A stretch of 64,000 bases of DNA from an uncultured bacterium (lineage in GTDB: Bacteria; Omnitrophota; Omnitrophia; Omnitrophales; Aquincolibacteriaceae). The notes under the pieces are model-generated. The model was not told where the DNA came from, made no database searches, and saw only the letters and a list, made by a program, of their open reading frames with translations. The stretch is from assembly GCA_964385615.1 (NCBI GenBank), contig CAYLPP010000003.1, forward strand, positions 139,288 to 203,287, read 5' to 3'. This document shows, in pieces, positions 22,956 through 23,501 of the stretch (position 1 is its first letter; the number at the start of each line of letters is the position of its first letter). Made by a program: the position numbers and the translations under genes.

Positions 22956-23501
22956 TTATTTCTTCCCAGAACCGAACTCTTTCTCGAATTTAACCTGATC
23001 AAAATCTTTCTCAACAATTTCATAGTAAGCAGGCTCTATAAACTTATCTTCATTAGAATGCGCAGAATAAACCCAATAAACATAGTGATCCGTTTGAACA
23101 AAGCGGCTGATATAGGTCCAACCGTCACGCGTAAAATCAAAATTCAAAGATTTATAACCTCGATACACAATAGGCTCTTCTCTTATGATTCTCAGTTTAA
23201 TATCTGCCCCTTCCAGCAACATTCGCACCCCCTGCTTTGTCAGCTCAATTGCCGAGTCTTTAGCTGCATCAGGAGGAATATCATAAGCGGCTACATTAAA
23301 AGTCATTCCTAAGTTACTGCGAAAAACAACTCCATATTCAGTCTTTTCAGCTTTCTTAAAAACACAAGGTACCTCAAATCTATTTTGGAAGTCATGATAA
23401 GTCTTACCTTCTTGGCAGGTGTTAAAAAAATCGAAGGGCAATGCCATTCCTTTTTGAGGTGAAAGCAAAAGAATGCAAATAAATAGTACAAAATATCTCA
23501 T
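22956..23501 (-). CDS. Small secreted protein immediately downstream of the giant gene, with a 3-nt gap; candidate immunity or accessory protein.
   Basis: Signal peptide (MRYFVLFICILLLSPQKGMALP). 181 aa. Its ATG lies 3 nt after the giant ORF stop codon. No recognisable family. Confidence 0.5.
   Translation of the reverse strand: MRYFVLFICILLLSPQKGMALPFDFFNTCQEGKTYHDFQNRFEVPCVFKKAEKTEYGVVFRSNLGMTFNVAAYDIPPDAAKDSAIELTKQGVRMLLEGADIKLRIIREEPIVYRGYKSLNFDFTRDGWTYISRFVQTDHYVYWVYSAHSNEDKFIEPAYYEIVEKDFDQVKFEKEFGSGKK

Follow-up and report, generated by a model that had tools for sequence, protein, structure and literature searches.

What the giant genes of Omnitrophota do is a question that the locus analyzed here poses in a narrower form: what is the role of a small gene that begins directly behind the end of such a giant? 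The locus lies in a stretch of 64,000 nt (hereafter the window; NCBI GenBank assembly GCA_964385615.1, contig CAYLPP010000003.1, positions 139,288–203,287) from an uncultured bacterium of the Aquincolibacteriaceae (Omnitrophota), in which a minus-strand open reading frame (ORF) for a protein of 8,175 aa is followed by an ORF for a protein of 181 aa that we refer to as p181. An initial annotation of the window had proposed that p181 is a periplasmic immunity protein against a toxic C-terminal domain of the giant. The reading that we favor, with a probability of roughly 0.55, is that p181 is the cognate exported periplasmic partner, most probably the immunity protein, of an exchangeable tip formed by about the last 270–350 residues of an Omnitrophota-type giant.

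p181 is a genuine gene and not a chance ORF, because a HMMER search of 1.84 billion cluster representatives identified ten homologues at e values between 4e-22 and 2e-5 and because the identical 181-aa product is called on a 291,937-nt NCBI contig. As initially described, the ORF starts 3 nt past the stop codon of the giant: The TAA of the giant occupies positions 23505–23507 and the ATG of p181 positions 23499–23501, resulting in the junction TAA CTT ATG. A Shine–Dalgarno-like motif is absent from the 30 nt upstream of p181 and is present for approximately half of the other genes in the window; its absence agrees with termination–reinitiation coupling of p181 without proving it. The N-terminus of p181 reads MRYFVLFICILLLSPQKGMA followed by LPFDFF: A single basic residue is combined with a hydrophobic core of 11 residues, positions −3 to −1 are G-M-A, and the Kyte–Doolittle value of residues 1–16 is 3.25. 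Read by eye from the sequence, this start fits a Sec signal cleaved by signal peptidase I, as the initial annotation had also suggested, and a signal peptide is found in all eight of the homologues that have a complete N-terminus.

Relatives of the giant bear on the relation of p181 to the tip. A search with the last 999 aa of the giant returned four relatives, two of which are named Candidatus Omnitrophota/Omnitrophica by NCBI, and the contigs of these relatives contributed a further giant-gene end, two stand-alone cassettes, of which one is complete and the other truncated, and a partial tip. The four relatives (P0012–P0015) and the giant-gene end on contig L007 share 29–47% identity with residues ~7150–7900 of the giant. 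A MAFFT alignment of seven tails, comprising the giant of the window and six relatives, revealed that the tails share a C39-like domain, a “KVKGAGWFKKLFKKI” segment, a 68-residue hydrophobic stretch, and a linker ending in DGGNF…(I/V)GN, and that similarity vanishes past the DGGNF…IGN motif. Beyond this boundary, the eight tips available were mutually unrelated in an all-against-all BLASTP comparison except for one weak pair. The C39-like domain has EDIHFGQSAM in the window, and EDIHFG(Q/S)SA across the window and the relatives, where the catalytic cysteine is expected, a position that we take to align with the active site of C39 peptidases; the domain is therefore probably noncatalytic and not a releasing peptidase.

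The gene behind the tip varies together with the tip. Downstream DNA has been sequenced for five tips of the relatives, and each of these tips overlaps, by 4–17 nt, a co-directional gene behind it; these five partner genes (table 1) are unrelated to one another and to p181. Different tips thus carry different coupled downstream genes, the outcome by which the initial annotation had proposed to check its reading; the opposite pattern, in which the p181 gene is kept while the tip varies, was not seen, as none of the relatives keeps a p181 homologue. Behind the end of one relative giant gene and its partner (L007:1-9951, ENA ERZ27253376 k141_479526), stand-alone tip cassettes form an array: Two are complete (536 aa and 800 aa), each with its own overlapping small gene, and the start of a third comes after them. 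Every cassette in this array opens with a near-identical signal-like leader, MKLKFLR…FSFHQLSFA(S/Y)PIS. On these features the array looks like the spare-cassette arrays of Rhs and CdiA loci, from which it is distinct in that each cassette appears to have an export signal of its own. HEAT-repeat proteins, one of which is among the partners, are listed among the known immunity classes (Zhang et al. 2012, PMC3482391).

Nucleotide composition also ties p181 to the tip. Segmentation by likelihood with two boundaries placed p181, the tip, and ~80 preceding codons in one island with a GC content of 0.381 as opposed to 0.490 outside, which is the lowest 1,620-nt window of the 64 kb, about 4 standard deviations under the mean. 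The edges of this island fall 15 nt past the stop codon of p181 and ~50 codons upstream of the DLDGGNF motif, and across p181 and the tip the GC content drops from about 0.49–0.50 to 0.37–0.41. GC content at third codon positions is 0.32 for both p181 and the tip, compared with 0.47–0.53 in the remainder of the giant gene and in the GH39-like gene that follows p181. The tips and partners of the relatives on contigs L005 and L007 mostly show the same drop, which is clearest in the partner genes, with the P0014 tip as the exception. Because they share one low-GC block, tip and p181 look like a single cassette that was acquired jointly.

We propose that the giant would be exported by means of its N-terminal signal or anchor. 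Its C-terminus is built, as the comparison with the relatives shows, from the conserved C39-like domain, the hydrophobic region, the DGGNF…IGN motif, and finally the variable tip, which by its composition appears to have been gained together with the downstream gene as one low-GC cassette. Translation of p181 would be coupled to the end of the giant ORF, given the 3-nt gap and the lack of a Shine–Dalgarno motif, and the product would be exported and cleaved after Ala20. In the periplasm of the producer, the PsbP/Mog1-type β-sheet scaffold predicted for p181 would then bind the tip and block an envelope-directed activity; the envelope is the expected place of action of the tip because its partner is exported.

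Sequence searches bear out the initial description of p181 as a protein of no recognizable family. Neither the single sequence nor the family profile matched a Pfam, NCBIfam, PADLOC, or PDB sequence family above noise, and the search of PDB sequences with the profile gave nothing meaningful; no match to Pfam PsbP or DUF1795 was found for p181 or its ten homologues at e values up to 1; the sole match in a word-indexed protein search was p181 itself; and scans of GTDB genomes and JGI metagenomes with p181, a p181 sub-alignment, and the tip identified no close relatives. Matches that surfaced in the sequence-family searches, such as a weak one to LolA and one to the designed repeat protein 7ue2, were rejected as noise. 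The fold, however, is recognizable. An AlphaFold2 model built from the 11-sequence alignment has a predicted local distance difference test (pLDDT) score of 86.7 and a predicted template modeling score of 0.83, whereas the single-sequence model is unusable (pLDDT 48.5). Foldseek matched the former to 27 PDB chains at e values ≤1e-3, among them CyanoP, PsbP, PA94, SciW, EagT6, and DcrB. The best matches were CyanoP/PsbP (e value 3.5e-6, template modeling [TM] score about 0.6, 11–15% identity); SciW and EagT6 bound to effector transmembrane domains followed with e values of about 1e-4 and target TM scores of 0.58–0.62, and the match to the immunity protein Tsi3 was weak (e value 4e-3, probability 0.99, TM score 0.38–0.49, root-mean-square deviation about 10.7 Å). 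This confident model thus suggests a PsbP/Mog1/DUF1795 fold, the α–β–α sandwich seen in the solved members. The resemblance of Tsi3 to Mog1p and PsbP was noted by those who solved its crystal structure (PMC3792639), and Zhang et al. (2012, PMC3482391) reported PsbP/MOG1-like genes that adjoin toxin genes of type VI secretion systems (T6SS).

The PsbP/Mog1 fold is a generic protein- and ligand-binding scaffold and therefore allows p181 to be read as a chaperone as well as an immunity protein. DUF1795 chaperones shield the transmembrane helices of T6SS Rhs effectors, and p181 could by analogy be an Eag-like holdase that covers the giant's hydrophobic region of 68 residues in the periplasm while the giant is being exported, an idea to which the matches to effector-bound SciW and EagT6 lend themselves, as do the RHS repeats and the long hydrophobic stretch of the giant. 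The hydrophobic region is, however, present in all relatives and yet no p181 homologue lies downstream at any of the five loci; since the partner varies with the tip and the hydrophobic region lacks a constant partner, the function of the partner should be specific to the tip and not that of an Eag-like chaperone of the conserved region. In addition, p181 has no Pfam DUF1795 match and has a signal peptide, whereas Eag chaperones work in the cytoplasm, come from genes located upstream, and target N-terminal prePAAR helices, according to PMC12881460 and to established knowledge. We consider this role highly improbable.

A chaperone devoted to the tip is a second possibility. In the lipA–lif operons of Pseudomonas and Burkholderia, the all-α foldase Lif is encoded directly downstream of the lipase gene, and p181 might likewise be a tip-specific periplasmic foldase or activator that folds, solubilizes, or hands over the tip. 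Such a protein would leave the same signature of tight coupling, covariation with the tip, and joint low-GC acquisition; the fold of p181 is common to the Eag/DUF1795 effector chaperones; and should the AHSQG motif in the tip (table 1) mark a lipase-like hydrolase, there is precedent for an operon of a lipase and a downstream periplasmic helper. This explanation is nevertheless quite unlikely, as p181 has no relation to Lif in sequence or fold, as the partners of the other tips (HEAT, TPR, and small cytoplasmic proteins) form a mix typical of immunity genes, and as the cassette arrays on L007 fit the logic of toxins and immunity.

The homologues of p181 bear on whether it is tied to the tip at all. 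The family is very rare, with ~11 clusters in a collection of 15 billion proteins, and spans very different organisms, as the GC content of the contigs that encode the homologues ranges from 0.33 to 0.58. The nine complete homologues share 29–44% identity with p181. Most homologues (P0002, P0004, P0006, P0010, and P0017; L001, L003, and L009) are lipoproteins with a lipobox, behind whose cysteine a stretch of the form C-(S/A)-T-x-HTGPLLxG(D/E)(I/V)P…FG is conserved. The genes of the homologues are found in varied places: At L003 the gene belongs to a group of lipoprotein genes that precedes an MFS gene, at L004 it adjoins ribB and a transposase fragment, at L009 it follows a SecD-like fragment and precedes another lipoprotein gene, and at L002, in a restriction-modification/Abi island, it lies between a cytosine-deaminase-like gene and genes for membrane proteins. 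The region around the last of these homologues (P0003; L002:1-20609, ENA ERZ25039527 contig_52102) is rich in defense genes, with two DNA methyltransferases, HNH, Vsr, AbiEi/AbiEii, and a metallophosphatase, and P0003 is followed by several multi-pass membrane proteins without known function. A tblastn search of the homologue loci with the giant was empty, so that no giant-like sequence is found there, and four gene fragments upstream of homologues showed no likeness to the tip in Smith–Waterman comparisons against shuffled sequences (lowest uncorrected P = 0.02, for the SecD-like fragment).

These contexts, which at L003, L009, and L004 include no toxin-like neighbors, are what would be expected if p181 were a PsbP/DcrB-like housekeeping protein or lipoprotein of the envelope that has no functional tie to the tip and perhaps hitchhiked in the insertion, and the lipoproteins CyanoP and DcrB are indeed among the top fold matches. 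In this case, however, neither the 3-nt coupling nor the low-GC island around tip and p181, both of which argue for one unit, nor the fact that in the relatives the same position always holds a tip-specific gene would be accounted for, and p181 itself has neither the lipobox nor the HTGPLLxGDIPLPFG tether of its homologues. We therefore regard an envelope protein without a tie to the tip as unlikely.

What the tip itself does was addressed at the level of sequence. Slices of 300 aa and 195 aa matched no Pfam family at e values up to 10, including α/β hydrolases and Tle. The initial annotation had likened the tip to a lipase effector, and this part of it was not supported: no search assigns the tip to a lipase or other toxin family, and the lipase reading is a guess prompted by AHSQG, a motif whose spacing to YRD (8109) and YH (8137) presumably resembles that of small lipases. 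Searches with other tips were similarly silent, as PDB sequence searches with three of them and NCBIfam searches with the other tips and the partner genes found nothing. The tip of relative P0013, by contrast to that of the window, matches DUF4329 with an e value of 6e-5, which is under the Pfam gathering score, and contains an E…HTH…S..D motif; DUF4329 is equated by Zhang et al. (2012, PMC3482391) with the polymorphic-toxin domain Tox-JAB-2. Separately, a JAB-like motif (SHTHPNEHSAQGPSGLD, HTHPN…PSGLD) is found near the N-terminus of the giant (residues ~131–230; 47343–47642, minus strand) and resembles the HTH…S..D signature of the P0013 tip, although it has no Pfam support.

That the tip of the window matches no toxin family would also be expected if the variable end were a cytoplasmic or anchoring domain of a membrane-anchored adhesin and p181 acted in signaling or surface remodeling with the secreted GH39-like enzyme whose gene begins 62 nt after p181. 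Eight mutually unrelated tips, stand-alone cassettes with signal-like leaders of their own, a Tox-JAB-2/DUF4329-like tip in one relative, and the low-GC cassette structure are all hard to explain in this way, and we judge it very unlikely.

Several observations weigh against p181 as the immunity partner of the tip. The tip has no toxin or enzyme family and no homologue in Pfam, NCBIfam, PDB sequences, protein collections, GTDB, or JGI, and is thus a putative toxin. The best fold matches of p181 are PsbP/CyanoP and the Eag chaperones, with Tsi3 a weak match. The ten homologues of p181, where context exists, never adjoin giant-, tip-, or toxin-like genes; orphan immunity genes are common in other systems, and the scattered contexts fit equally well the idea that p181 was drawn from a family of envelope proteins. 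Orphan or spare tip cassettes are absent from the 64-kb window. Finally, depending on how often the hydrophobic stretch crosses the membrane, the tip could end up in the cytoplasm, which is where West-Roberts et al. (bioRxiv 10.1101/2023.11.21.568195) assume the C-termini of such giants to lie. The periplasmic immunity partner of the initial annotation is thus supported in part: A tip-specific coupled gene that covaries with the tip and shares a low-GC island with it speaks for such a partner, and the lack of a lipase or toxin family and of toxin-like neighbors of the homologues speaks against it.

Table 1. Features of the Giant Gene, the p181 Gene, and the Partner Genes of Relatives (coordinates are positions in the 64-kb window)
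Feature	Coordinates	Strand	Length	Description or basis
p181 ORF	22956..23501 (stop codon included)	minus	181 aa	ATG start; exported PsbP/Mog1-fold candidate immunity protein
Predicted Sec signal peptide of p181, residues 1-20, MRYFVLFICILLLSPQKGMA	23442..23501	minus		Hydrophobic core; aligns with signal/lipobox regions of homologues; cleavage site read from sequence
Spacer between giant TAA and p181 ATG	23502..23504	minus	3 nt	Sequence
Giant ORF	23505..48032	minus	8,175 aa	Signal/anchor, RHS repeats, 5 LamG_3, ~7 F5/8 type C, dockerin, ILEI, DUF1080-like
C39-like domain without catalytic Cys, residues ~7196-7360	25953..26447	minus		Pfam PF03412, e value 1.9e-6, profile positions 45-128 only
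Hydrophobic stretch, residues 7566-7633	25134..25337	minus	68 residues	Kyte–Doolittle scan; conserved in P0012-P0015 and L007 giant end
Demarcation motif DLDGGNF…IETIGNF, residues 7877-7903	24324..24404	minus		MAFFT alignment; last block shared with relatives
Variable C-terminal tip, residues 7904-8175	23508..24323	minus		Similarity ends after DGGNF…IGN; no detectable family
AHSQG motif, residues 8049-8053, possible α/β hydrolase nucleophile elbow	23874..23888	minus		Motif search; without profile support
Low-GC island: p181, tip, and ~80 preceding codons	22941..24560	both/unstranded		Two-boundary likelihood segmentation
Partner gene in relative			227 aa	HEAT_2 protein with N-terminal membrane helix
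Partner gene in relative			297 aa	TPR protein with N-terminal helix
Partner gene in relative			80 aa	No signal
Partner gene in relative			127 aa	N-terminal hydrophobic segment
Partner gene in relative			98 aa	No signal

The domain architecture of the giant matches that of the “Dockerin-type” giant proteins of Omnitrophota (bioRxiv 10.1101/2023.11.21.568195). Two of its LamG-type segments of ~200 residues each (residues ~4833–5030 and ~5216–5415; 31608–32477 and 32757–33626, minus strand) are almost identical, which indicates a recent internal duplication that could also confuse assemblies. The ten genes upstream of the giant encode MreBCD, PBP2, RodA, a ferritin, an amylase-like protein, MsrB, a Na/Ca exchanger, and a Ca-ATPase; the last two, a P-type Ca2+-ATPase-like protein of 880 aa and a Na+/Ca2+ exchanger of 331 aa, are encoded directly upstream of the giant (48303–51966, minus strand), and a link to the calcium-binding dockerin/EF-hand modules of the giant through the supply of calcium at the surface is possible. 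Downstream of p181 lie GH39-like, glutamine-amidotransferase-like, and fumarase-like genes, read from their translations, with Pfam run solely on the GH39-like one. The GC content of this GH39-like gene (21211–22893, minus strand) is normal, and its product of 560 aa combines a signal peptide with a GH39-like domain (e value 6e-16); the gene possibly shares a transcript with the giant gene, and it would fit the proposed role in the degradation of cell-surface polysaccharides.

Taken together, the locus and its relatives allow a broader reading in which the “Dockerin-type” giants of Omnitrophota would deliver swappable toxin tips on a new module composed of an inactive C39-like domain, a hydrophobic stretch, and the DGGNF…IGN boundary, with an immunity gene for each tip and spare arrays in relatives. 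p181 would then found a family of periplasmic immunity proteins with a PsbP fold, and its scattered lipoprotein relatives, including the one in the restriction-modification/Abi island of L002, could be orphan immunity genes. We advance this combination tentatively and rate it short of even odds. In the papers on Omnitrophota giant genes that were consulted (including bioRxiv 10.1101/2023.11.21.568195), adhesion and cell-wall degradation are proposed, and polymorphic toxins and immunity genes are unmentioned. If the last ~300 residues are indeed exchangeable toxins with immunity partners, the giants would gain a concrete and testable function in killing or competition, and the catalogue of polymorphic toxin systems would be enlarged by an immunity family with a PsbP-type fold and by a pre-toxin module, both of them new. 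The logic is familiar to specialists in toxin systems; for the Omnitrophota giant genes it amounts to a concrete, clonable hypothesis, as the small pairs of tip and partner can be cloned and assayed without handling the 24.5-kb gene.

The known proteins that p181 matches best in structure, CyanoP/PsbP and DcrB, are exported and resemble it in size, and CyanoP and DcrB are lipoproteins like the p181 homologues; identity is, however, 11–15%, a Pfam PsbP match is lacking, and p181 has no photosystem context. With the Eag/DUF1795 chaperones SciW and EagT6, p181 shares the fold class and a gene position beside an RHS-containing toxin-like gene with hydrophobic helices. It differs in being exported, encoded downstream, and absent from relatives that keep the hydrophobic region, whereas the genes of Eag proteins usually sit upstream and their products engage conserved N-terminal helices; we do not count p181 among the Eag chaperones. 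The T6SS Tle/Tli pairs, to which the initial annotation had compared the locus, combine an envelope-acting effector with an adjacent gene for an exported immunity protein, and the AHSQG of the tip is a GxSxG-type motif. p181 itself falls in no Pfam, NCBIfam, or PADLOC family, Tli models not having been checked by name. The tip has no Tle or α/β-hydrolase Pfam match, and no T6SS or other secretion-system genes are present among the flanking genes inspected (17–23 kb and 48–60 kb of the window). Because a hydrolase-family match and, within the 64 kb inspected, a T6SS are both missing, we conclude that this is not a Tle/Tli pair. Tse3–Tsi3 of the Pseudomonas aeruginosa T6SS likewise has an exported immunity protein, Tsi3, a β-sandwich related to Mog1/PsbP (PMC3792639), but its structural match to p181 is weak, without sequence similarity, and its partner is a T6SS-delivered muramidase and not the tip of a giant protein.

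The closest parallel is offered by the polymorphic toxin systems (Rhs, CdiA-CT/CdiI, and MafB; PMC3482391). With these, the locus and its relatives share a large exported carrier with RHS repeats, a sharp boundary motif followed by unrelated tips, a small co-directional gene for each tip, located right downstream of it, stand-alone cassettes in relatives, and a tip and partner with lower GC content than the carrier. They differ in their carrier, a “Dockerin-type” giant of 8,175 aa that contains LamG, discoidin, and dockerin modules, in that the tip of the window belongs to no listed toxin family, and in that there are neither nearby secretion genes nor any T6SS domain or TPS, PAAR, VgrG, LXG, or WXG trafficking domain in the giant. 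Moreover, the main RHS-repeat region is separated from the tip by other domains that add up to more than 4,000 residues. A canonical Rhs core ends, just before the tip, in the self-cleavage motif PxxxxDPxGL, but DPxG[LWF] occurs nowhere in the 8,175 aa; because the DPxGL motif is missing, the giant is not a canonical Rhs toxin. The carrier, the p181 family, and the pre-tip module, in which a C39-like domain without its cysteine is combined with the 68-residue hydrophobic stretch and which is not among the described pre-toxin domains, are undescribed. Judged by its architecture, however, with a conserved carrier, unrelated tips past a sharp boundary, tip-specific small genes directly behind them, and arrays of cassettes in relatives, the pair of tip and p181 resembles a polymorphic toxin/immunity pair.

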